Assembly: GCA_023384135.1 (NCBI GenBank)
Contig: JAHDXS010000001.1
Location: 965,878 to 1,029,877 of the forward strand
Direction: 5' to 3'
Source: Alphaproteobacteria bacterium
GTDB lineage: Bacteria; Pseudomonadota; Alphaproteobacteria; Micavibrionales; Micavibrionaceae
Length of the DNA stretch: 64,000 nt
The translations under genes were made by a program, and so were the position numbers. A model generated the notes under the pieces. The model was not told the DNA's origin and ran no database searches. It was given only the letters and a program-made list of their open reading frames with translations. Positions 3,855 to 27,519 of the stretch are shown one piece after another. Each line of letters starts with the position of its first letter. Position 1 is the first letter of the stretch.

Positions 3855-4457
3855 ATGGAAAAGGAAACGATCGAACTTCCGGAAGCCCCCCTCCCGCTCT
3901 TCCATAAGTGGTTTGCAGAGGCCCAAACCGGGGAGCCGAACGACCCGGACGCCATGGCTCTAGCCACCGCCACCCCGGACGGACGGCCGATCGTGCGTAT
4001 GGTCCTTCTTAAACAGGCCGATGAACGCGGCTTTAAGTTCCATAGCAACGAACAAAGCTTCAAGGGCCGCCATCTGGCCGCCAACCCGCACGCTGCGCTG
4101 TGCTTTCACTGGAAATCCCTGCGCAGGCAGATTTGCGTGCAGGGAAAGGTCGAAATCGCGCCGGAGGCGGAGGCCGACGAATACTTCGCAACCCGCCCGT
4201 ATGAACGCCAGATCGGCGCATGGGCCTCCGACCAATCGCGCCCGCTGGAAAACCGACAAATTCTGGAAAAAAAGATCGATACCCTAAAAGGCCAGTACCC
4301 CGAGGGCAAAGTGCCGCGCCCGCCCCAATGGGTGGGCTACATCCTCAAACCCGAGCGGATCGAATTCTGGTGGAGCCACCGTGACCGTCTGCATGACCGA
4401 TTCGAATACAAAAAGGGCGCAGATGGCCTGTGGACCATCCAACGCCTTTACCCTTGA
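3855..4457 (+). CDS. pdxH: pyridoxamine 5'-phosphate oxidase PdxH
   Basis: 200 aa. RMVLLK, FHSN, ERIEFW...DRLHDRF motifs of PNPOx. Confidence 0.88.
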   Translation: MEKETIELPEAPLPLFHKWFAEAQTGEPNDPDAMALATATPDGRPIVRMVLLKQADERGFKFHSNEQSFKGRHLAANPHAALCFHWKSLRRQICVQGKVEIAPEAEADEYFATRPYERQIGAWASDQSRPLENRQILEKKIDTLKGQYPEGKVPRPPQWVGYILKPERIEFWWSHRDRLHDRFEYKKGADGLWTIQRLYP

Positions 4458-4489
4458 TTCCCCAGAAAAACAGCGCCATAAATGGCCCC

Positions 4490-6466
4490 ATGAGCAAAAA
4501 CATGAACAGCGCGAAACAAACCGAAACACCCCAACCCGGCGAACAGAGTTTTACCGCAGACGTTGCCCGGCTTCTGGATATCGTCGCCAACGCGCTTTAT
4601 ACGAACCACGATGTCTTCCTGCGCGAACTGATCTCTAACGCCGCGGACGCCTGCGACCGCTTACGGTACGACTCGATTCAGAACCCCAGCCTCATTAAAG
4701 ACAACCCGGATTTCCGCATTCATGTCTTCAAGGACACCAAAGACCGTACCCTCAGTGTGATCGATAACGGCATCGGCATGAGCGCGCAGGAAATGGCCGA
4801 TAACCTTGGCACAATAGCTAAATCAGGCACCGCCGCCCTTATGAAACAGATGAAGGAGCAAGGCGCAAGCGCTGATCTCAAGCTGATCGGCCAGTTCGGC
4901 GTGGGCTTTTACGCGGGCTTCATGGTCGCGCATAAAATCCGCGTCGTCAGCAAAAAGGCAGGAGAACCAAGCGCCTTCACGTGGGAATCCGACGGCCGCA
5001 CGGGCTACACGGTCCGCGAAGCCACCAGCGATGAGACCGCCACCCTCGACGGCGCACGTGGCACCGCCATACACCTTGATCTTAAAAACGAGGCCTGTGA
5101 TTTCCTTCTGGACGAAAAAATCAAGATGACCGTCCACATGTACTCCGACCACATCAGCGTTCCGATTTATATGGGAACACCCCATGACACGAAGCACGAT
5201 CAGTCGGAAAAGCTGAACACCGCGTCTGCGCTCTGGATGCGCCCGAAAAACGAAATAACGGCAGAGCAATACACCGAATTCTACCGCCACCTTACGGGCG
5301 GCTTCGATGAACCGAGCATGACCGCGCATTGGCGCGCTGAAGGCAAGATCGAATTCACCGGCCTGCTCTTCATCCCGACCCTGCGCCCGTGGGATCTGTT
5401 CGACCCCTCCCGCCGCCATTTCGTTAAGCTCTACGTCCGCCGGGTCTTTATTTCCGAGGATGTAAACACGTTGATGTACCCCTGGCTGCGCTTCGTTCGC
5501 GGGATAATCGACAGCGAGGACCTGCCCCTCAACATCAGCCGCGAAAGCCTGCAATTCAATCCTGTAGTCAGCAAGATCAGAAGCGCGGTCGCAAAACGCG
5601 TCCTGACCGACCTCGACAAGCTCTCGCAAATCGACCCGCCGACCTTCGCGTCCATCTGGGGCCAGTTCGGCGCCGTGCTGAAGGAAGGGCTTTACGACGC
5701 GCCCGAACACCGCATGGAGCTTCTGAAGGTCTGCCGCTTTTTCAGCAGCCACGATAACGGCGAACGGCTGACCAGCCTTGAGGATTATATCGCCCGCATA
5801 AAAGAAGGGCAGGAGCAGATTTTCTATATTACCGGGGAGTCCCTGAACGCCCTGCGAAACAGCCCCCAGCTTGAGGGCTTCCGCGACCGCGGCCTAGAAG
5901 TCATCTTCCTCACCGACACAATCGATGATTTCTGGCTGCAAAAAGTTTTAGATTTCAACGGCAAGCCCTTTAAATCTATAACAAAAGGCCATGTAGACCT
6001 CGACGTTTACGATTTCAAAACGAAACAGAACGATCAAAAAGACACAACCGAACAACCAGACAAAAAGAATGAACAAGACGCCGCGAATATCGGCGGCCTG
6101 ATTGTCCGGCTGGCCAATATCCTGCGCGACCGGGTGCAGAACGTGCGTCGGTCGCAGCGCCTCTCCGGCTCACCCGTTTGCCTCGTCGCCGCAGACAACA
6201 GCGTAGACATGCACATGGAGCGCGTCCTGAAAATCCACCAAAAATACGAGGCCAGCACCAAACCCGTCTTGGAAATCAACCCCAACCACCCGCTCATCAA
6301 GCTTCTGGCGCAACAGGCGCAGGCTGGCGCGGATATTGCCGAAGCCGCAGACCTTCTCCTCGATCAGGCCTTCATCATTCAGGGCGAACCGCTGGCCGAT
6401 CCATCGGCCTTCGCCCGCCGGATGTCGGAGATCATGCTCCGCGCACTCGAGGGAAGCAAAAGCTAA
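4490..6466 (+). CDS. htpG: molecular chaperone HtpG (Hsp90). Start trimmed to MSKNM.
   Basis: FLRELISNAADACDRLRY, IGQFGVGFYAGFMVA, C-terminal dimerisation region. The ORF Met at 4430 overlaps pdxH and precedes the conserved N-terminus by too much. Confidence 0.9.
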   Translation: MSKNMNSAKQTETPQPGEQSFTADVARLLDIVANALYTNHDVFLRELISNAADACDRLRYDSIQNPSLIKDNPDFRIHVFKDTKDRTLSVIDNGIGMSAQEMADNLGTIAKSGTAALMKQMKEQGASADLKLIGQFGVGFYAGFMVAHKIRVVSKKAGEPSAFTWESDGRTGYTVREATSDETATLDGARGTAIHLDLKNEACDFLLDEKIKMTVHMYSDHISVPIYMGTPHDTKHDQSEKLNTASALWMRPKNEITAEQYTEFYRHLTGGFDEPSMTAHWRAEGKIEFTGLLFIPTLRPWDLFDPSRRHFVKLYVRRVFISEDVNTLMYPWLRFVRGIIDSEDLPLNISRESLQFNPVVSKIRSAVAKRVLTDLDKLSQIDPPTFASIWGQFGAVLKEGLYDAPEHRMELLKVCRFFSSHDNGERLTSLEDYIARIKEGQEQIFYITGESLNALRNSPQLEGFRDRGLEVIFLTDTIDDFWLQKVLDFNGKPFKSITKGHVDLDVYDFKTKQNDQKDTTEQPDKKNEQDAANIGGLIVRLANILRDRVQNVRRSQRLSGSPVCLVAADNSVDMHMERVLKIHQKYEASTKPVLEINPNHPLIKLLAQQAQAGADIAEAADLLLDQAFIIQGEPLADPSAFARRMSEIMLRALEGSKS

Positions 6467-16216: not shown

Positions 16217-17590
16217 CTAAGCCACGCCATAAGAAGAAACGCTGGGCGAGGATCTCTGGAACTGACGTTCAAGGTTTACACCCGACTCCTGCTCCAGCGC
16301 AATACGTTGAAGCGCGAGATCGTTGTCGGCATGGCTGGCAAAAAACGCTGAGGCGCTAACGCCGCCAATTTTAATTGACGCCTGATCGCCATCGGCCAAA
16401 GCCACCACGGCGGCTCCGCCGCGAATAGAGCTGACATCCATATCCGCATGGGCGCTGGGCATAGAAACGGAAGCGCTGGCGACCTGAACCGGGGCGACCT
16501 GAACAGGAGCGGCCTCCTCGGGCGCAACCTCGGCGCTCGCCGTTTGCACGGGCGCGGCATCCGGTCCCGCCGCGCGAAGCACGGGGGAAGACTCCTCAAG
16601 GGCGCCGTGACGATCATTCCCTTCGAAGCGGCGTTGCTGCTCAAGCTCGCGCTCCACCCGGCGATCGGTGATCTGGCGCTGCACTGCGCCGGAGAACGCC
16701 TCGATGGATTCTTTCACATGCGGGTTGGCATGGCCATCGAACGCGCCGTTGCCGATAAGGCGTTTAAGATGGCCGTTGAATTCCTCGGGCCGGTCATCAA
16801 GCATCCGCCCCGCATCGGCGGCGGAAATGCCCTGATCGGCGGCAACTTTGTTGATCATCTCCGCCCGGAACGTGCGCGAGGCGTCGATATGCGCCTGCGT
16901 CGCGGGTCCGGGCCTGTCGATCAAAATGGCCGTAGCATGTTCGGGATCGCCCGCAGCGCCAAGCGCCCGGAAATCGATCATGGCCTGCGCCATATCGTTC
17001 AGCCCGTTATTGCGCGCCCAGTTGATTGCGGCGCGGTCGGCCTCGACCTCGCGCCCCAGCACAGCCACCTCTATCTGACTGGCGGTCATCCCCGCCGTGT
17101 TCAACGGCGGCTGGTTACAGTGAACCCCCTCATGGATACCGATAATGCGGTCCCAATGATCGTCCCACCCGGGAATCTCCCTGATCCGGCTCAGATCCTG
17201 GGCTGACAGCAAGGGCATAAGCTCGTTCTTGTGATTCAGACGACTTCCGGGTTCGTTAACGATGCAAATGGGCGCGGGGGCAGCCGTTGATCCTGTCGGC
17301 GGCACGATTTCGCCGCGCACGGCAAACGGCCCAAGACTGAGGGATTGAGCAACCGCGGATCTCATATCCGAATCCGACATGCCCCTCGTCATTCCGGGCA
17401 GCTGCTCTTCGAGCATCTCGCGCATCTTCCTGGCATCATCCGCATGAACCGTACCGGTTCTGTCAAAATGCCCACGGTCGAATTTATCAGGATCGATGAA
17501 CACAACCGGAACGCCCGAAGTCTCGCGGACGCCCTCTTTATAGTCGTCTACGAACAGACTTCTGAGATCGGACCAAAACCCTCTAGCCAT
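16217..17590 (-). CDS. hypothetical protein with HExxH motif and Ala/Pro/Val-rich linker
   Basis: 457 aa. IIGIHEGVHCNQ. Repetitive APVQTASAEVAPEEAAPVQVAPVQVASASV. Confidence 0.55.
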   Translation of the reverse strand: MARGFWSDLRSLFVDDYKEGVRETSGVPVVFIDPDKFDRGHFDRTGTVHADDARKMREMLEEQLPGMTRGMSDSDMRSAVAQSLSLGPFAVRGEIVPPTGSTAAPAPICIVNEPGSRLNHKNELMPLLSAQDLSRIREIPGWDDHWDRIIGIHEGVHCNQPPLNTAGMTASQIEVAVLGREVEADRAAINWARNNGLNDMAQAMIDFRALGAAGDPEHATAILIDRPGPATQAHIDASRTFRAEMINKVAADQGISAADAGRMLDDRPEEFNGHLKRLIGNGAFDGHANPHVKESIEAFSGAVQRQITDRRVERELEQQRRFEGNDRHGALEESSPVLRAAGPDAAPVQTASAEVAPEEAAPVQVAPVQVASASVSMPSAHADMDVSSIRGGAAVVALADGDQASIKIGGVSASAFFASHADNDLALQRIALEQESGVNLERQFQRSSPSVSSYGVA

Positions 17591-17617
17591 GACGCTCCGC
17601 CTCGCCCCGCACGCTGA

Positions 17618-18058
17618 TTATAATTCCGGACCGGCCGGAGGAGGTTCCGGATCGTCCTTCTTGATTTTGACTTCCGGCACGATCACCTGCGCGGGGATTC
17701 GAAGCCCCCCCGCCGCACCCGGCTCACGCGAAATCACGGTCCTGTCCGTGCCGGCCTGCGGCTCGACCTTCAGGGCCTCACTCGCATCTTTCGGTTTATC
17801 GTTAGGTTTCTTGCCCCTGGCATCGTCGGGCTTGACGGTGGGCGTCACCGTTTGCGCGGGAATAGCTAGACCGCCCTCGGCTCCCGGCGTACGCTCAATC
17901 GTGACGGAACGCCCGTCTTGTTGCTGGGTCACTGTAAGGGGCTGCCCGCCCTGCCCGTCCGCGCGGGTCTCGCCCTGCTGATCAGTCGCCGCACACCCCC
18001 CAAGGGCGATTAACGACGCCAACGCGGCGGCACTCATAAAATTTGTCTTTTTGCTCAT
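17618..18058 (-). CDS. lipoprotein with two ~30 aa internal repeats
   Basis: Lipobox LIALGGC. Repeats RTPGAEGGLAIPAQTVTPTVKPDD and REPGAAGGLRIPAQVIVPEVKIKKDD. Confidence 0.65.
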   Translation of the reverse strand: MSKKTNFMSAAALASLIALGGCAATDQQGETRADGQGGQPLTVTQQQDGRSVTIERTPGAEGGLAIPAQTVTPTVKPDDARGKKPNDKPKDASEALKVEPQAGTDRTVISREPGAAGGLRIPAQVIVPEVKIKKDDPEPPPAGPEL

Positions 18059-18570
18059 GGCAAAACCCGTCTGTATTTTATGCCCCTATTATAGGCCGAT
18101 AAGCATGGTTTAAGCAAAAAAATAAAGAGGCGATTCCCGGCCAGAAATACAAAAACCGCGATCCGCAAAGCACAAAAAAAGAGACCCCGGCGTAGAACAC
18201 TGGGGCCTTTGAGGTTGGGGTGATAAGCTAACGAAACTACCAGATAATTTCGTTAGCAGCGGGTTGACTTTATCTACCGTATCCGGATCCTCTTTGTCCA
18301 TTGTTATTTTTATGGACCCGAACTGTAATTCTTTGTTTTTTGCGCATAGACGCGACTTGCACATACAGGGCAACAGATGCAGCCAAGATAGCAGTCGCGA
18401 TGAACATTTAAAACCCTTTCGACTCGGCCCCTTTAGCAGGAGCGCTTGTTCTTGTCTTTACTAAACACAGTGTAACAGCATCGCTTCCAACCTGTCAAAA
18501 TTTTAAATTATTTTTAGAAAACATTTTTGGCTTGACACAAAGCCTCAAAAACAACGGCAGAATCAGCCTC

Positions 18571-19416
18571 TTACGACCCGCAAGCCGCATAGAACGCCAC
18601 CGCCGCCGCGTTGGAAACATTAAGGCTTTGGATCGGTCCGGGCGCCGGAAGACGGGCCAGAACGTCGCAATTTTCCCGAATCAGGCGGCGAATCCCTTCC
18701 CCTTCCGACCCCAGAACCAGAACGATTCTCGCGGAATCGCCCGTATGGGGGGCCAAAGCCTCGCCCACCGTGCGCTCCCCGCGCTCGTCCAGCCCGATGA
18801 CGAAGAACCCGGCCTCCTTAAGCTCGTCCAGCGCACGGGTAAGGTTCGTGGCGTCCACAAGCGGCACATGCTCCGCCGCGCCGCTGGCCGTCTTGGCCGC
18901 CACGCCGTCCAACTCCGCCCCGTGCTTTTTCTGCTGAATCACGCCGTGCAGCCCGAAAACGCAGGCGCTGCGCAAAATCGCGCCCAGATTATGCGGGTCC
19001 GTCACCTGGTCCAGCATGGCCAGAACCGTCCGCCCCCGCCCCTGCGCGGCGATGATGAGGTCCGTAAGGTCCCGCTCGGGCAGAGGCTGGGCGCAAAGCG
19101 CCACGCCCTGATGCACCGCCCCGGGGGACAGCAGCCTCTCCAGGCGGGCCTTGTCGATGATCTCCGGCCCCGGGCGACGCAGACCAAGGCTCCGCCCCTC
19201 CTGCACCGTCTCCTCGAAGCCCTTCACGGCCTGTTCGGTCAGGTAAAGCGCCTCGATCACCCGCTCGGGGTTCAGCCACGCCGCCCGCGCGGCGTGAAAA
19301 CCGTAAAGCGTAGGCCGCTTATAGGCCTTCTGCGGCCCCGGCTCGTGCGCCTGATCGGGCTTGCGGGCGGGTTTGTGCGGGCCCTTTTTATGGCCCTTAT
19401 GCAGGCGGTGTTTCAT
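18571..19416 (-). CDS. rlmB: 23S rRNA (guanosine-2'-O)-methyltransferase RlmB (SpoU/TrmH family)
   Basis: SPOUT motifs LDQVTDPHNLGAILRSA, VLVLGSEGEGIR, SLNVSNAAAVAFY. Start chosen at MKHRLHKG; the basic N-terminal tail is uncertain. Confidence 0.8.
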   Translation of the reverse strand: MKHRLHKGHKKGPHKPARKPDQAHEPGPQKAYKRPTLYGFHAARAAWLNPERVIEALYLTEQAVKGFEETVQEGRSLGLRRPGPEIIDKARLERLLSPGAVHQGVALCAQPLPERDLTDLIIAAQGRGRTVLAMLDQVTDPHNLGAILRSACVFGLHGVIQQKKHGAELDGVAAKTASGAAEHVPLVDATNLTRALDELKEAGFFVIGLDERGERTVGEALAPHTGDSARIVLVLGSEGEGIRRLIRENCDVLARLPAPGPIQSLNVSNAAAVAFYAACGS

Positions 19417-19537: not shown

Positions 19538-19623
19538 GGAAGGGTGGCCGAGTGGCTAAAGGCAGCAGACTGTAAATCTGCCCTCTCCGGAGTACGTAGG
19601 TTCGAATCCTACCCCTTCCACCA
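19538..19623 (+). tRNA. tRNA-Tyr (anticodon GTA), type II with long variable arm, CCA encoded
   Basis: GGAAGGG acceptor stem pairs with CCCTTCC. Anticodon loop cuGUAaa. GGTTCGAATCC T-arm. Confidence 0.9.
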
Positions 19624-19695
19624 TTTTGAAAACCTGATATTCTCCCAAAACAACTCACGATTAGTACTCATGATCAACCTAAGTTTGGTTAAATT

Positions 19696-20955
19696 ATGCA
19701 TTTCAAAAGTATAAAAATTGCAGAGTGGCAACAATTTCAAAACGTAGATATTAGCTTCGAGAATCAAGTCACTATTCTCACAGGCGCTAATGGAAGTGGA
19801 AAAACGTCTATTCTGAATATTTTAGCAAGACACTCCGGGTGGGAGCATCCTTCTTTCTCTACGCCTAAAAAAGAGGAGAAAACAGGTCTGATAAGCTATC
19901 CAACTAGATTTTTTGATGGAGAAGACAAAAGCGATACCCTTAACATAGGAGAACTAATATATAGCAACGAACAAGTTACAGAACTTCGGATTAATGAAAG
20001 TAATAGCGCTCAGTATCACTTGCGGATATACCCTGAAGCGCAGCGGGTACGCTGTTTATATATTCCCTCTCACCGCTCTGTGCCTCGACACGAACGAGTT
20101 ACAGATATTTCAACGTCTAAAAAAACCAAAGAACGGGCTTTCCAAGAAGTAAACTCTAGCATCAAAGACCGATATTTTGCATCAAACCGCAATCCATCAA
20201 GCACATTTTACATGAAAGCTGCTCTTATAGGGTGGGCCACACAAGGTTACGGAGTTCGCGCACCTGACGGAACTGTCATTATGCCGGATGATAGAGAGCA
20301 GGCTAGCTATTTTGAAGGCTTCCCTGCGGCTCTCAAAAAAATTCTACCAAGATCTTTGGGATTTGAAAAAATAGAAATTAGAAATTTTGAGGTCGTTTTT
20401 ATCTGCAACGAAGGTAAAGATGAATTTTTGCTGGAAACTGTATCAGGCGGTATCGCCTCCTTAATTGATATGGCATGGCAAATTTACATGTATCAGACTG
20501 AAGATAAGGAGCATTTTACTGTAATTATTGATGAAGTAGAAAACCATCTGCACCCCACTATGCAACGCCAGATTCTAGCAGATTTAACCAAAGCATTTCC
20601 AAATGTCCGGTTTATAGTATCGACGCATAGCCCGCTGATAGTGGGGTCGGTACGAGACGCACAAGTTTACGTTTTAAAATATAACGGCAGAAATAAAGTG
20701 GTCAGTTTGAGGCTTGATTTTCAAAACAAAGCTAAAACAGCAGCAGAAGTGCTTGATGAAGTGCTCGGCGTATCAGTGACTATGCCTATTTGGGCCGAAA
20801 ATAAATTAAACGATATTGTTAGCAACTACTCCCAGAAACAAATGACCCAAGATGATTTCAACGCCATGCGAAGAGAATTGAGTGATATTGGTCTGCAAAG
20901 ACTGGTGCCAACCGCGATTACAAAAGTTTTGGAGGAAAAGAATGATCAGGATTGA
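19696..20955 (+). CDS. ptuA: ABC/AAA15-type ATPase, Septu PtuA-like
   Basis: Walker A TILTGANGSGKTS, Walker B IIDEVENHLH, H-loop VSTHSP. AT-rich codon usage. Located immediately 3' of tRNA-Tyr. Confidence 0.7.
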   Translation: MHFKSIKIAEWQQFQNVDISFENQVTILTGANGSGKTSILNILARHSGWEHPSFSTPKKEEKTGLISYPTRFFDGEDKSDTLNIGELIYSNEQVTELRINESNSAQYHLRIYPEAQRVRCLYIPSHRSVPRHERVTDISTSKKTKERAFQEVNSSIKDRYFASNRNPSSTFYMKAALIGWATQGYGVRAPDGTVIMPDDREQASYFEGFPAALKKILPRSLGFEKIEIRNFEVVFICNEGKDEFLLETVSGGIASLIDMAWQIYMYQTEDKEHFTVIIDEVENHLHPTMQRQILADLTKAFPNVRFIVSTHSPLIVGSVRDAQVYVLKYNGRNKVVSLRLDFQNKAKTAAEVLDEVLGVSVTMPIWAENKLNDIVSNYSQKQMTQDDFNAMRRELSDIGLQRLVPTAITKVLEEKNDQD

Positions 20956-21517
20956 GCGGCCTGCATGTCCAAACCCCACAGCTCTAACTACGAACTATAA
21001 GCATCCGCAGAATAAAGAGGCTTTGAAAAAGGCTTCTTATAACAAATGCATGTATTGCGAGAGCCATGTGTCGCAGATAGCTTTTGGCGATGTCGAGCAT
21101 ATAAAACCAAAGGATAAATTTCCGGCACTTGAATTTTCTTGGGAAAACCACGGCTACGCTTGTTCAAAGTGCAATAACGAAAAAAGAAACAAATTTTTCG
21201 ATCAGACACCATTTATTGATCCTTATTCAGAAAATCCCAGAGAGCACATATATGCATTCGGAGCAATGTTGCGACCTAAGCAAGGCAGCGAGCGCGGAGA
21301 AATCACAATTAACGAGATCGGGTTGAACCGAGCCGATCTTCTCGAAAAGCGAGATAAACGCATTAATGAATTAGAAACAGCCATAAAGGCATGCTACCGC
21401 ACTCAAAATGAACACTTGCGTGAATGTGCTATGTCAGCTTTGATAACTGAAATCACGGAAGATAAGGAATATTCAATGGTTGTGCAGGCTTTATACGAGG
21501 CTCACGAAACAGAATAA
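20942..21517 (+). CDS. ptuB: HNH endonuclease, Septu PtuB-like (start MIRIERP overlaps ptuA end by 14 nt)
   Basis: CMYCES...VEHIKP...ENHGYACSKCNNEK gives the zinc-finger HNH CxxC...H...H...CxxC. Confidence 0.7.
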   Translation: MIRIERPACPNPTALTTNYKHPQNKEALKKASYNKCMYCESHVSQIAFGDVEHIKPKDKFPALEFSWENHGYACSKCNNEKRNKFFDQTPFIDPYSENPREHIYAFGAMLRPKQGSERGEITINEIGLNRADLLEKRDKRINELETAIKACYRTQNEHLRECAMSALITEITEDKEYSMVVQALYEAHETE

Positions 21518-21545
21518 AAAAACGCAGGCTCTCTCAAGCCTGCGC
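21518..21545. terminator. rho-independent terminator (bidirectional) between convergent ptuB and the helicase gene
   Basis: AAAAAAA-CGCAGGC-tctctcaa-GCCTGCG. Confidence 0.6.
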
Positions 21546-21574
21546 TCTGAATTCTTTATATCGCGTTCGGGCGA

Positions 21575-22795
21575 TTATGCGGCCATTCTCTGCTGGCCGC
21601 CCTGCGGGCCCTTATTGCGGAAACGGCGTTTGTTGGGTCTGCGCTTCTTGTTGAAAGGCTGGTCGCCCTTCTTCCCGTCCGCGCTGCCCTTGCCATCGCC
21701 GCCTTTGGCCGCGCCGGGGTTCAGCAGACGCTCGATCGCGCGCCACTTCTGGCCGTCCTGCGGCGAGATGAAGCACACGGCCGAACCTTCGGCCCCCGCG
21801 CGCGCCGTACGGCCCATGCGGTGAATGTAGTCTTCCGCCACCTGCGGCAGGTCATAGTTGATGACATGCTCGATATGCGGAACGTCAAGGCCGCGCGCGG
21901 CGATGTCGGTCGCCACGAGAACCCGGAAACTCTTCCTGCGGAAATTCTGCATCACCTGCGTACGCTTGCTTTGGCGCAAATCGCCGTGCAGGGCTTCGGA
22001 CTCAAACCCGTCGCGGCGCAGATTTTTGGCAATCCGGTCAGCGCCGTGCTTGGTCTTCGAAAACACGATGACCGAACCGGTGCGCTCATGAAGCTGGGAA
22101 ACCAGCTCGCCGTATTTCTGCTCCTGATCGATACGAACGATCTGTTGCTTGATGTTGATCGCCACGACATTCGTTGCGCCGACCGACACCCGCTCGGGGT
22201 TCGTGAGATATTTGCTCGAAAGCTGGATAATGCCCTGCGGCAGCGTCGCCGAGAACATCAAGGTTTGCCGTTTAGCAGGCAGGTACTTGAGGATCTTGTC
22301 GAGCTGCACGCCAAAGCCCATATCGAGCATCCGGTCAGTCTCGTCCAGAACCAAAAACGCCGTATCATGCAGGTTCAGCGAACCGCGACCCAAATGATCG
22401 TTGATCCGGCCCGGCGTACCCACGATGATGCGGGGCTTTGCGCGAAGTTGGCTCATCTGCTTACCCATCGACTCTCCGCCGATGATAAAGGCGGTCTTGA
22501 TCGGGCTTTGATGCCCCAGCAATTGGTGGATAACGTCAAGCACCTGCTTGGCGAGTTCGCGCGTCGGTGTCAAAACCATCGCCGAACCGCGCGGAGAACG
22601 CAGCAGCGCCTCAACCAGCGGAATGGCAAACGCAGCCGTCTTACCCGTCCCCGTTTGTGCGGAGCCGAGAATATCCCGGCCTTGCATGGCCAAGGGTATC
22701 GCCTGTTGTTGAACAGGCGTGGGCACAGTATAGCCCATCTTCTTAAGGGATCTATTCAGATCTTGTGAGAGGCCGAAGCCTTCAAAATTATTCAT
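21575..22795 (-). CDS. DEAD-box ATP-dependent RNA helicase (RhlE/CsdA-like)
   Basis: Q-motif PTPVQ, AQTGTGKT, DEAD-equivalent VLDETD, SAT, HRIGRTARAG, basic RG-rich tail. Confidence 0.88.
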   Translation of the reverse strand: MNNFEGFGLSQDLNRSLKKMGYTVPTPVQQQAIPLAMQGRDILGSAQTGTGKTAAFAIPLVEALLRSPRGSAMVLTPTRELAKQVLDVIHQLLGHQSPIKTAFIIGGESMGKQMSQLRAKPRIIVGTPGRINDHLGRGSLNLHDTAFLVLDETDRMLDMGFGVQLDKILKYLPAKRQTLMFSATLPQGIIQLSSKYLTNPERVSVGATNVVAINIKQQIVRIDQEQKYGELVSQLHERTGSVIVFSKTKHGADRIAKNLRRDGFESEALHGDLRQSKRTQVMQNFRRKSFRVLVATDIAARGLDVPHIEHVINYDLPQVAEDYIHRMGRTARAGAEGSAVCFISPQDGQKWRAIERLLNPGAAKGGDGKGSADGKKGDQPFNKKRRPNKRRFRNKGPQGGQQRMAA

Positions 22796-22812: not shown

Positions 22813-23385
22813 TTATTTCGTTGTTTTTGTTTTATCCTGCGCGTCCACAGCATAATCGCCACTGAACATGCGTAGGATTTGGCGGCTCTTTTCTGTCTCC
22901 GAAGCCCTAACCTGCGCCGTTTCGCTAAGATCCGAAACGCGCTTGTCATGAGTGTCGGAAAGGGCTTGGTCGGCCACCCTTCTTGCATCTGTCGTTATTT
23001 TCTGGCGGATGAGGGCGAATTCAATCGCATCCACCAGCCTTGCAAACTGGCCGCGGATAATCGTATCCGCAGCCCCTTGCTCCATCACAAAAGTGGAGAG
23101 ACCGTGCTGGTCTTCCGCATTGGTCAGGACAATAATCGGAATTTCAAAAACCATGCCTTCAAGGCTTTTAAAAACCTCTTTCGAGGAAGGCAGGTCGTCT
23201 GTATCCGGCTTCAGGATAACAAGATCGGCCTTATGTATGACCGATCTTGCTTCCTTAACATCGACGCAATGACAAATGGTCCACGGAACGCGCATATCGC
23301 TCTCAAGCCACGTCTGGATTTCGGCAATTTCTGAAACGTCATTGTCGATAATCACGATGTGAATCTTGAGTTGTTCCGCTCCCAT
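22813..23385 (-). CDS. receiver-domain-like protein (atypical)
   Basis: IHIVIIDNDVSE...ADLVILKPDTDDLP...IPIIVLTNAED resembles a CheY-like fold. The phospho-acceptor position is ambiguous and may be Lys. Confidence 0.5.
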   Translation of the reverse strand: MGAEQLKIHIVIIDNDVSEIAEIQTWLESDMRVPWTICHCVDVKEARSVIHKADLVILKPDTDDLPSSKEVFKSLEGMVFEIPIIVLTNAEDQHGLSTFVMEQGAADTIIRGQFARLVDAIEFALIRQKITTDARRVADQALSDTHDKRVSDLSETAQVRASETEKSRQILRMFSGDYAVDAQDKTKTTK

Positions 23386-25665: not shown

Positions 25666-27336
25666 TCAATCTTTTTTATTCAGATCAAAACAGGCTGATG
25701 GAGGAGAACTAGGGCCGATCGGTCTGTCTTGAGCAGATACATGTTGGGAGGGATCAAGGTATTGAGAATAATCACTTTCCAGCCCCAGGCGCATAAACGC
25801 TGCGTAATGCGCATCTCGAAGCGCTTCTCTCTGGGCAACCTTGTATCGCTTCACCCTCTTGAGCGCCCTTATTAAAAGTACTCTCGCACGCTTACCTTCT
25901 GTGATTCCCGGCCCTGCCCGACAAATCGCATAGTAAAGCGCCGTAGGTGTTTTCCAAGGTTCGATCCGTCCAAGACTTTTCTCTAGCATATCGAGTAATG
26001 TCTCATAGGCGGGCTCTCCAAGATCGCCAAACCTGACGAGCATATGAAAATCTTCGCGCATCATTTTCTCATACCCATAATACCTATTCTCAAAATCAGA
26101 ACCTTCTTGGGCAAAATAGTCCACAAGCTTACCAGACAAACCCTTATAATCTTGATCAGAAAGCCCGACGATAAAGGGGGTTAAAGCCCTTCTGAGTTTC
26201 CTGTTCTTTGCCTCACAAGTTAAGGAGTATTCTCTCGTTGCGCGAATATAAGCATCGAGAATTTTTTCCTTGTTCGATGACACATAATTTCGGTCAGCCA
26301 ACACCATGGGAAAGACCTTATCGGGAATCTGTGCATTACAAGGATTGGCTATGATCCTCTCAAACCGTCTTCTGGGATCGTTATAATCATCAACGATCCG
26401 TCTAATTTCAACTTTAGCGGCCTTACGGTTCAAAACCGCCTTTTTATCCTGAGGGATTAACCCCAAGGTTTCCGCGAGCTTGTCGACATGCCCGTACCCT
26501 ATAGGCTTGGGCGCATACCTATGAAACGCAGCATGACATTTCCACTCAGCGGACGAAGATATAAGCGAACAGCCTAAAATAGGGACAGGAAACCATGGAT
26601 ACATAATTGCGTAACCTGCGGAAATTTCCGTCACCCGCCCATCGGGAGTAGTAACAATTATAGGTCTTTCGTCAATCAGACGGACATCTGCGGGCTTTCT
26701 GCGTGTTTTATCCTGCTCAATAAGAACAATTTCCTTTTCAAGAGGCTCTGAATGAAGAGGTATGCCATAAATACATTTATCCTCAATGGGTTTATACCCG
26801 CCCTTTCCATCACTGATATTGATCCGCATGAAAAAAGTGCCTTTACTATAACCATAATCGCGCATAGCCTCGCATTGCTCACGATCTCCAAGGCGAACAA
26901 GAGTTTCTCTTGGAATTGTCTTCTGATAATCTTCCATCCCGCTGTGCGAAGGATGCGAAGATAAAACCTCCTCCAGACCATACTTGACAAGAAAACTCTC
27001 GGCGAAAACCTTAGGCACACTCAAAATCTGCTTGTCGGGATCAAACTGAATAGCGACCCGGGGGATATCATAATCAGCCTGATAAATTTTAAAATTGTGT
27101 GTAGCTACAAAAAGAAAATACCCTCCGAAATAGAGCACCGGAAACACAAGGGTCCATCGAGGCGATATTTTCCACCAAACCGCCTCTGCGATCATGAATA
27201 AAAATCCGGCATTGATCGTAATAATCGACCAAAACATAGCCAGAAAAAGCATCATAAAAATGCCAGTCAGCGGAAAAACCTGAAGCGCAAACACAAGCGC
27301 CGTAACAACAAAACAAAATATAGACGGTTTGAACAT
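25666..27336 (-). CDS. AT-rich hypothetical membrane-anchored protein (3 N-terminal TM helices plus ~450 aa soluble domain)
   Basis: Start reassigned to the ATG (MFKPSIF) with AGAGGG RBS. Strongly AT-skewed codon usage compared with neighbours. Adjacent to tRNA-Asn. Confidence 0.6.
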   Translation of the reverse strand: MFKPSIFCFVVTALVFALQVFPLTGIFMMLFLAMFWSIITINAGFLFMIAEAVWWKISPRWTLVFPVLYFGGYFLFVATHNFKIYQADYDIPRVAIQFDPDKQILSVPKVFAESFLVKYGLEEVLSSHPSHSGMEDYQKTIPRETLVRLGDREQCEAMRDYGYSKGTFFMRINISDGKGGYKPIEDKCIYGIPLHSEPLEKEIVLIEQDKTRRKPADVRLIDERPIIVTTPDGRVTEISAGYAIMYPWFPVPILGCSLISSSAEWKCHAAFHRYAPKPIGYGHVDKLAETLGLIPQDKKAVLNRKAAKVEIRRIVDDYNDPRRRFERIIANPCNAQIPDKVFPMVLADRNYVSSNKEKILDAYIRATREYSLTCEAKNRKLRRALTPFIVGLSDQDYKGLSGKLVDYFAQEGSDFENRYYGYEKMMREDFHMLVRFGDLGEPAYETLLDMLEKSLGRIEPWKTPTALYYAICRAGPGITEGKRARVLLIRALKRVKRYKVAQREALRDAHYAAFMRLGLESDYSQYLDPSQHVSAQDRPIGPSSPPSACFDLNKKD

Positions 27337-27443
27337 GATGAGCCCTCTCTGCACAAATTAACAAATATGTTTGCAGACAACAAAGGGCAAAGCGCACCCT
27401 AAGACTAAGCGTGAGCAATTAAAAAAGGCTGAAAAAGGGAAAA

Positions 27444-27519
<76 letters not shown>

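Follow-up and report, generated by a model that had tools for sequence, protein, structure and literature searches.

A predicted standalone (type I) Septu operon, ptuA-ptuB, flush against the 3' end of tRNA-Tyr in a Micavibrio-related alphaproteobacterium

We analysed a stretch of 64,000 nucleotides (hereafter the window) from contig JAHDXS010000001.1 of assembly GCA_023384135.1, an uncultured alphaproteobacterium of the Micavibrionaceae, in which two genes, ptuA and ptuB, follow a tRNA-Tyr gene on the same strand. The locus is very probably a standalone (type I) Septu anti-phage system in a Micavibrio-related alphaproteobacterium, the anti-phage role being predicted. A previous sequence-only reading had described the pair as an ATPase and an HNH nuclease with the architecture of Septu (PtuA/PtuB), and this description was borne out: full-length matches to the PADLOC models PtuA1 and PtuB1, Pfam, a profile search of the PDB and Foldseek all agree. 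The two open reading frames (ORFs), ORF1 (ptuA, 419 aa) and ORF2 (ptuB, 191 aa), overlap by 14 nt, as initially read. On one side the pair is bordered by tRNA-Tyr and rlmB and on the other by a helicase gene; the tRNA-Tyr itself is not part of the defence system.

The assignment of ORF1 to PtuA was supported at the level of sequence, domain and predicted fold. Against the PADLOC model PtuA1 (PDLC00290) it scored 526 bits (E 2e-158), with residues 1-416 aligned to positions 1-413 of the 414 in the profile, and the remaining matches among its 25 best in PADLOC were also PtuA models, with one exception. The check by hidden Markov models that had been proposed with the sequence-only reading gave Pfam matches over the cut-off for both AAA_21 (71 bits) and AAA_15 (70 bits). 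In the PDB, the top chains found by single-sequence and by profile search were PtuA only, from the type I-A retrons Ec78/Eco7 and Ec83 and from Escherichia coli Septu (8EE4, 8EEA and 8SUX), and in the profile search AriA, GajA and OLD ranked after the PtuA chains at much weaker E-values. An AlphaFold2 model of the ORF1 monomer, built with 25 homologues, reached a mean predicted local distance difference test score (pLDDT) of 81.7 and a predicted template modelling score (pTM) of 0.80; when it was compared with the PDB by Foldseek, the best 50 matches were all PtuA chains (E 3e-16 to 2e-12). The Walker A, Walker B and H-loop motifs noticed at the outset are invariant across the alignment of 25 homologues, namely G30-x-N-G-x-G-K36-T37 for Walker A, I278-D279-E280 for Walker B and T310-H311-S312 for the H-loop, and so is the SGG at 250-252.

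ORF2 was identified with similar clarity. It matched the PADLOC model PtuB1 (PDLC00337) over essentially its full length (E 2.6e-65, 218 bits) and the Pfam family HNH at 30.4 bits (cut-off 21.4), and a profile search of the PDB returned PtuB chains only. The nuclease of about 190 aa had been credited with a complete CxxC/His/CxxC motif, and the alignment of PtuB proteins agrees, C36xxC39, E52-H53, N69 and C74xxC77-N78 all being invariant. H53 and N69 are 16 residues apart, the same spacing as between H75 and N91 of the Septu system EcB88, two residues whose mutation abolishes immunity in that system (PMC13096335). Translation from the ATG at 20942 leads to a stop codon at 21515-21517. A longer form of ptuB starting from a GTG at 20882 was rejected: it added only 2.5 bits to the match with the PtuB model and had no ribosome-binding site, and the alignment with homologous PtuB proteins begins at the first residue of the ATG-initiated protein.

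Table 1. Features at the ptuA-ptuB locus (positions are those of the window)
Feature	Position	Strand	Basis
tRNA-Tyr (GTA), class II with long variable arm; left anchor of the slot	19538..19623	+	ARAGORN; Rfam tRNA, 63 bits
TTTT, last bases common with the sister-strain allele; left breakpoint	19624..19627		blastn of L085 against the window
Foreign AT-rich cassette of 1885 bp (68-nt leader and ptuA-ptuB)	19628..21512	+	Breakpoints, GC content, GC content at third codon positions
ptuA, 419-aa ABC/SMC-type ATPase	19696..20955	+	PADLOC, Pfam, PDB profile, AlphaFold2/Foldseek, motifs
GGAGG ribosome-binding site of ptuB, within the end of ptuA, 6 nt 5' of the ATG	20931..20935	+	Read from sequence
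ptuB, 191-aa HNH nuclease	20942..21517	+	PADLOC, Pfam, PDB profile, alignment
Hairpin terminator, kept in the sister strain; right anchor of the slot	21519..21548		Terminator scan, fold, homology with L085
DEAD-box helicase gene, convergent	21575-22795	-	

The sequence-only reading had also suggested that the pair might be divergent from the described Septu subtypes, and this did not hold. A dedicated PADLOC subfamily model covers the protein from one end to the other, and homologues sharing 53-81% identity with it number in the hundreds. A search of 5.8 billion proteins returned 1380 matches, the best at 81% and 75% identity and hundreds of them, of full length, at 53-60%; their hosts include Patescibacteria, Vibrio, Legionella, Shewanella, Thalassospira, Flavobacteriales and Calditrichia. 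An exhaustive search of 1.84 billion representatives clustered at 50% identity gave 272 clusters at E <=1e-30 and 2993 at E <=1e-10. A scan of metagenome contigs with the PtuA alignment added, among the matches listed, at least one full-length and at least two partial close relatives, and a comparison with the phage records of GenBank gave no match. The system is neither divergent nor rare; as a canonical Septu of type I, it would be picked up automatically by PADLOC or DefenseFinder.

The pairing of the two genes is conserved among the homologues. In 15 of 15 full-length homologue loci, ptuB lies 3' of ptuA on the same strand and either overlaps it or follows within about 120 nt. The homologues lie in neighbourhoods typical for defence or mobile DNA. 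Beside the 81% homologue is an MmeI-type restriction-modification gene, and the island that holds them also has a tyrosine integrase and a tRNA-Cys; next to a homologue at 65% identity are Fic and Prim-Pol genes and a fragment of IS1595. Eleven homologues were found in prophage-like contigs of IMG/VR, mostly at contig ends, and 13 on plasmids, including Bacillus thuringiensis megaplasmids (40% PtuA identity), where the pair is annotated as 'AAA family ATPase' and 'HNH endonuclease' and sits beside IS231C. The ptuAB genes of the 81% homologue share 77.5% nucleotide identity with the window, and this similarity is restricted to the two ORFs; evidently ptuA and ptuB move together with no further DNA attached.

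The composition of the cassette sets it apart from the rest of the window. Its GC content (40.8%) is the minimum among all 1885-bp windows of the 64 kb (mean 56.0%, standard deviation 3.9), and its GC content at third codon positions (GC3) is 0.36-0.42, compared with 0.73-0.80 in rlmB and in the helicase and pyrophosphatase genes. Elsewhere in the window, positions 18000-18600 are likewise AT-rich (44-46% GC).

We then compared the flanks of the locus in related genomes, as had been advised when the insertion was proposed. A scan of genome contigs with the helicase yielded 80 loci, mostly from Micavibrio or Alphaproteobacteria metagenome-assembled genomes, with helicases at most 80% identical; the rlmB/tRNA-Tyr/helicase junction was kept in 0 of these 80, and the empty site is unreadable from them. 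An exact look-up of the helicase protein led to contigs of sister strains (GCA_013328895.1, whose contig is called L085 below, and others) with flanks about 99% identical to those of the window. In place of ptuAB, the slot in these strains holds an unrelated segment of 987 bp with 38% GC (L085:5011-5997, standing for window 19628-21512), and this unrelated cargo between near-identical flanks supports the insertion. The cargo is a 298-aa ORF (L085:5062-5955, minus strand in that locus, the same strand as the tRNA), whose product matched nothing in Pfam or PADLOC and found only itself among the 5.8 billion proteins. A role in defence or addiction, as yet uncharacterised, is possible for this orphan. 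We did not retain the label of 'defence hotspot' for the L085 allele, the cargo being without Pfam, PADLOC or homologue support.

The alignment with L085 places both breakpoints to the nucleotide. Homology is lost at 19627/19628, 4 nt past the CCA end of the tRNA, and returns at 21512/21513, in an A-run just 5' of the terminator hairpin. The AT-rich segment had been drawn as about 1.9 kb running from 72 bp past tRNA-Tyr to a terminator shared with the helicase gene; its composition and its end at the terminator stand, and its left border is moved, the foreign DNA beginning 4 nt past the tRNA and 72 nt being the distance from the tRNA end to the start of ptuA. The hairpin (free energy -16.3 kcal/mol, z -3.0) lies between the stop codons of ptuB and of the helicase gene (21575). 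In the terminator scan its stem has 13 pairs and a T-run comes after it on the minus, helicase strand, and for this reason it is first of all the terminator of the helicase. Between the window (21523-21544) and L085 (4981-5002) both arms of the hairpin differ, with the core stem retained; the sequence of the window is CGCAGGCT...AGCCTGCG and then CTC, that of L085 CGCAGGCC...AGCCTGCG and then TCC.

More distant genomes tell a similar story for the left border. The RlmB of the window differs by about 1% from that of the recorded strains, and further relatives were found through RlmB homologues. The tRNA-Tyr sequence is identical in the sister strains and species, except for one base of the variable loop in contigs L154/155, and in every lineage found through RlmB the sequences diverge 3-4 nt past the tRNA-Tyr CCA. 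What follows the tRNA differs from lineage to lineage, with four configurations in the relatives beyond that of the sister strain. In one, a response-regulator gene ends 19 nt from the tRNA-Tyr end and there is no cargo; in another, DUF2924 genes stand at the tRNA-Tyr end. In a sister species, represented by CP065008.1 and related contigs (L158-L160, at about 4300-5900; RlmB 71% identical), a large serine recombinase abuts tRNA-Tyr and is followed by DUF3768 and HipA/HipB genes. The recombinase gene (524 aa, with Resolvase and Zn_ribbon_recom domains) is called across the 3' part of tRNA-Tyr, and the segment resembles an integrative element that uses this end of the tRNA. Because the lineages diverge at this point and carry differing cargo there, tRNA-Tyr has at its 3' end a site where DNA is inserted again and again in this clade.

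No agent of the insertion was seen at the window allele, in agreement with the first reading: the ORF list of the window contains no integrase or recombinase, the window has no second copy of the tRNA-Tyr 3' end at up to 3 mismatches, and no direct repeats above chance were found. The margins of the cassette comprise 68 non-coding nt on the left and 0 on the right, with no pseudogene remnants. The cassette had been called either a minimal or an eroded island; with such margins minimal describes it well and eroded is the less apt word. Two routes are plausible for the origin of ptuAB at this site: the conserved flanks could have allowed strains to exchange it by homologous recombination, or it could be the remnant of a delivery by an element since gone.

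Other features of the window and of L085 were noted in the same region. A second AT-rich cassette-like unit lies at window 25666-27354 on the minus strand; it encodes a 562-aa predicted membrane protein without a Pfam or PADLOC match (GC 0.449, GC3 0.433) and starts 90 nt past the 3' end of a tRNA-Asn gene (27444-27518, minus strand) in the same orientation, a layout like that of tRNA-Tyr and ptuAB. Homology with L085 stops at window 25540, and L085 has an HTH_3 gene in place of the 562-aa cassette. Between rlmB and the gene for a 146-aa protein, L085 in turn carries an additional stretch of about 500 bp (L085:7467-7966), with a 151-aa ORF that has no Pfam match; this segment is missing from the window (18147-18159). 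Flanking ORFs in the window at 16217-18058 and 22813-23385, all on the minus strand, are kept in the sister strains and gave no match in Pfam or PADLOC; they encode proteins of 457 aa, of 146 aa (Pro/Gly-rich, with a probable lipoprotein signal) and, upstream of the helicase, of 190 aa.

Having placed the operon, we weighed other identities for it. One alternative is that the pair serves as the effectors of a type I-A retron (Septu type II, as in Ec78/Eco7 or Ec83/Eco4), held in check by a reverse transcriptase (RT) and multicopy single-stranded DNA (msDNA). Chains from I-A retrons are indeed numerous among the best PDB sequence and fold matches of PtuA and PtuB, the nearest NCBIfam models are those of the retron Ec78 PtuA and PtuB, and PADLOC also lists ATPase_I-A and HNH_I-A. 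These retron models nevertheless score far below the standalone ones (ATPase_I-A 137 bits against 526 for PtuA1; HNH_I-A 54 bits against 218 for PtuB1) and stay under the NCBIfam cut-offs. Moreover, no ORF for an RT lies in or beside the cassette, which the two ORFs fill, and an Rfam scan of the window returned tRNAs only and no retron RNA. At 419 aa, PtuA is also without the N- and C-terminal extensions by which the retron PtuA, of about 550 aa, binds RT and msDNA (PMC12819146). As the cassette consists of only two ORFs, retron RNA was not found and the retron models score far lower, we assign the locus to type I Septu; the retron reading is scarcely credible and, for this locus, can be regarded as effectively refuted. 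That the pair belongs to another defence family with an ABC-type ATPase, such as Gabija (GajA), PARIS (AriA), an OLD-family nuclease or an AbiEii-like or type IV restriction module, is likewise highly improbable, even though some homologues are named 'OLD family endonuclease' in their sources, Pfam describes AAA_21 as 'putative AbiEii toxin', AriA and GajA appear in the PDB profile search at E 6e-9 to 2e-8 and PtuB matches the PADLOC model mREase_IV (E 2e-13). Neither protein has a Toprim domain in Pfam, the partner gene encodes an HNH nuclease where Gabija would have the GajB helicase and PARIS the Toprim protein AriB, and AriA and GajA rank under all PtuA chains; PtuA models lead all other PADLOC families widely, and the 50 best Foldseek matches are exclusively PtuA.

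A vertically inherited housekeeping pair, made of a RecF/SbcC/SMC-like repair ATPase and an accessory nuclease, would be expected to be kept in synteny at background GC. Some domain matches lean that way, with SMC_N at 44 bits in Pfam (cut-off 40) and weak N-terminal P-loop matches to RecF, RecN and Rad50; the latter, however, cover the P-loop region only (residues 1-41) and fall far under the model cut-offs. ptuAB is missing from the sister strain with 99% identical flanks, from 80 of the 80 related helicase loci and from all related species examined; it lies at the GC minimum of the window, with GC3 of about half that of its neighbours' genes (figures above), and its homologues are scattered over unrelated phyla, plasmids and prophage-like contigs. 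The housekeeping reading, to which we give next to no probability, is already refuted by the strain comparison. Some observations do weigh against the reading as type I Septu. Compared with solved PtuA structures, ORF1 reached TM-scores of only about 0.5, at 14-18% identity, and with so low a similarity to the studied E. coli PtuA the substrate and the trigger are not confidently transferable. Both proteins score under the cut-offs of the NCBIfam retron-Ec78 equivalogs (PtuA 135 against 500 bits, PtuB 36 against 150), which is expected for a different subfamily and yet marks the distance. Finally, a crude scan found no sigma-70-like promoter on the plus strand upstream of ptuA.

The same crude scan revealed no terminator-like site between tRNA-Tyr and ptuA. 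Transcription of ptuAB may run through from the tRNA-Tyr promoter; alternatively, the 68-nt leader may hold a promoter that went unrecognised. Translation of ptuB is probably coupled to that of ptuA, given the 14-nt overlap and the GGAGG that ptuB has of its own.

The mode of action that we propose for type I Septu at this locus is drawn by analogy with systems studied elsewhere. Phage protection by Septu has been shown for systems of B. thuringiensis and E. coli (PMC13096335, bioRxiv 10.1101/2022.08.27.505566). E. coli Septu assembles into a complex of the composition PtuA6:PtuB2, which nicks or cleaves DNA and which ATP inhibits (as summarised in PMC12819146 and PMC12640716). In the Septu system EcB88, infection by T6 leads to cutting of the variable arm of tRNA-Tyr, with both the Walker and the HNH motifs required (PMC13096335), and PtuAB of retron-Eco7 is likewise reported to deplete tRNA-Tyr (PMC11555353, PMC12673091; also PMC13096335, PMC12819146, PMC12640716). 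Mutations by which phages escape the Septu system of B. thuringiensis HD12 fall in the C-terminal tip of their tail fibres (bioRxiv 10.1101/2022.08.27.505566). By extension, the PtuA of the window, an ABC/SMC-type ATPase, would oligomerise and dock the PtuB HNH nuclease, which would be kept inactive at a normal ATP level. A late phage cue, traced to the tail-fibre tip for the Septu of B. thuringiensis, would lift the inhibition, and PtuB would then cut nucleic acid, either the variable arm of tRNA-Tyr, like EcB88 and retron-Eco7, or DNA by nicking, like E. coli Septu in vitro, so that phage replication would be stopped at the expense of host growth. By this analogy, cleavage of tRNA would have about an even chance of being the activity of this Septu subfamily, and nicking of DNA would be slightly less favoured.

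The position of a Septu operon directly behind tRNA-Tyr, a reported Septu substrate, raises the question of whether the two are linked. A scan of 17 homologue loci turned up no tRNA-Tyr, the only tRNA genes seen there being the tRNA-Cys by the integrase and a tRNA-Val about 2 kb off; an association with tRNA-Tyr as a general rule for this Septu subfamily was accordingly rejected. Because these 17 loci are without tRNA-Tyr, the slot of the sister strain holds an orphan gene and other mobile DNA is found at the same tRNA end, the data suggest that the adjacency is coincidental and explained by the slot rather than by Septu. We regard it as very unlikely that the position is no accident and that ptuAB would be co-transcribed with its own substrate (same strand, 72 nt 3', no terminator between), a thought that leans on the substrate reported for other systems. 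If this were true, nuclease dosage would be tied to the supply of tRNA-Tyr, or the tRNA precursor would serve as a cis-acting buffer or antidote. In a weaker variant, the tRNA 3' end and the 3' terminator could delimit a slot in which single operons are swapped without a resident integrase, and the cassette behind tRNA-Asn in the window (25666-27354) would be a second example of such a slot. The cassettes of the slot would then perhaps be mobilised in trans by the serine-recombinase elements that occupy the same tRNA in sister species.

The locus adds one more Septu system, from an uncultured bacterium related to Micavibrio, a predatory lineage, and leaves knowledge of Septu itself unchanged. 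It provides a clean natural case of a two-gene defence cassette that is swapped between strains, flush at a tRNA 3' end, without a resident integrase, and the additions are the exact boundaries of the insertion, the allelic replacement of cargo and evidence for a hotspot at the tRNA-Tyr 3' end in this lineage. The sole point of wider interest would be the juxtaposition with tRNA-Tyr, for which the comparative data suggest coincidence.

Type I Septu was reportedly first validated by Doron et al. in 2018, from B. thuringiensis HD12 and B. weihenstephanensis. The operon of the window has the same order and strand of its two genes, an ABC-type ATPase and an HNH nuclease with all catalytic motifs, and, as in type I, no RT or non-coding RNA (ncRNA). 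The pair on the B. thuringiensis megaplasmid, at 40% PtuA identity, has the same architecture. The window differs in its Micavibrio-related host, in having no flanking mobility genes and in the cassette lying flush against a tRNA gene.

With the E. coli Septu systems (8EE4, 8EEA and 8SUX; EcB88) the present one shares the fold family (Foldseek E about 3e-15 to 2e-12) and the standalone state, at an identity of only about 16-17% and TM-scores of about 0.5. The residues K43, D316, H75 and N91, which are essential in EcB88, correspond to K36, D279, H53 and N69 (PMC13096335). PtuA is shorter here, at 419 aa compared with 465 aa in E. coli Septu, and the tRNA-Tyr or DNA substrate, the inhibition by ATP and the 6:2 stoichiometry, which are known for the E. 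coli systems, are predicted here by analogy. The effectors of the type I-A retrons (Ec78/Eco7 and Ec83/Eco4) have homologous PtuA and PtuB proteins that are the top PDB sequence matches, whereas RT, ncRNA and msDNA have no counterpart in the cassette. With the genomic islands found at tRNA genes, finally, the cassette shares its site at a tRNA 3' end, its low GC, its strain-variable presence and the differing cargo in relatives. The window allele differs from these islands in being without an integrase, an att direct repeat or pseudogene debris, and in consisting of one operon, precisely replaced between conserved flanks.

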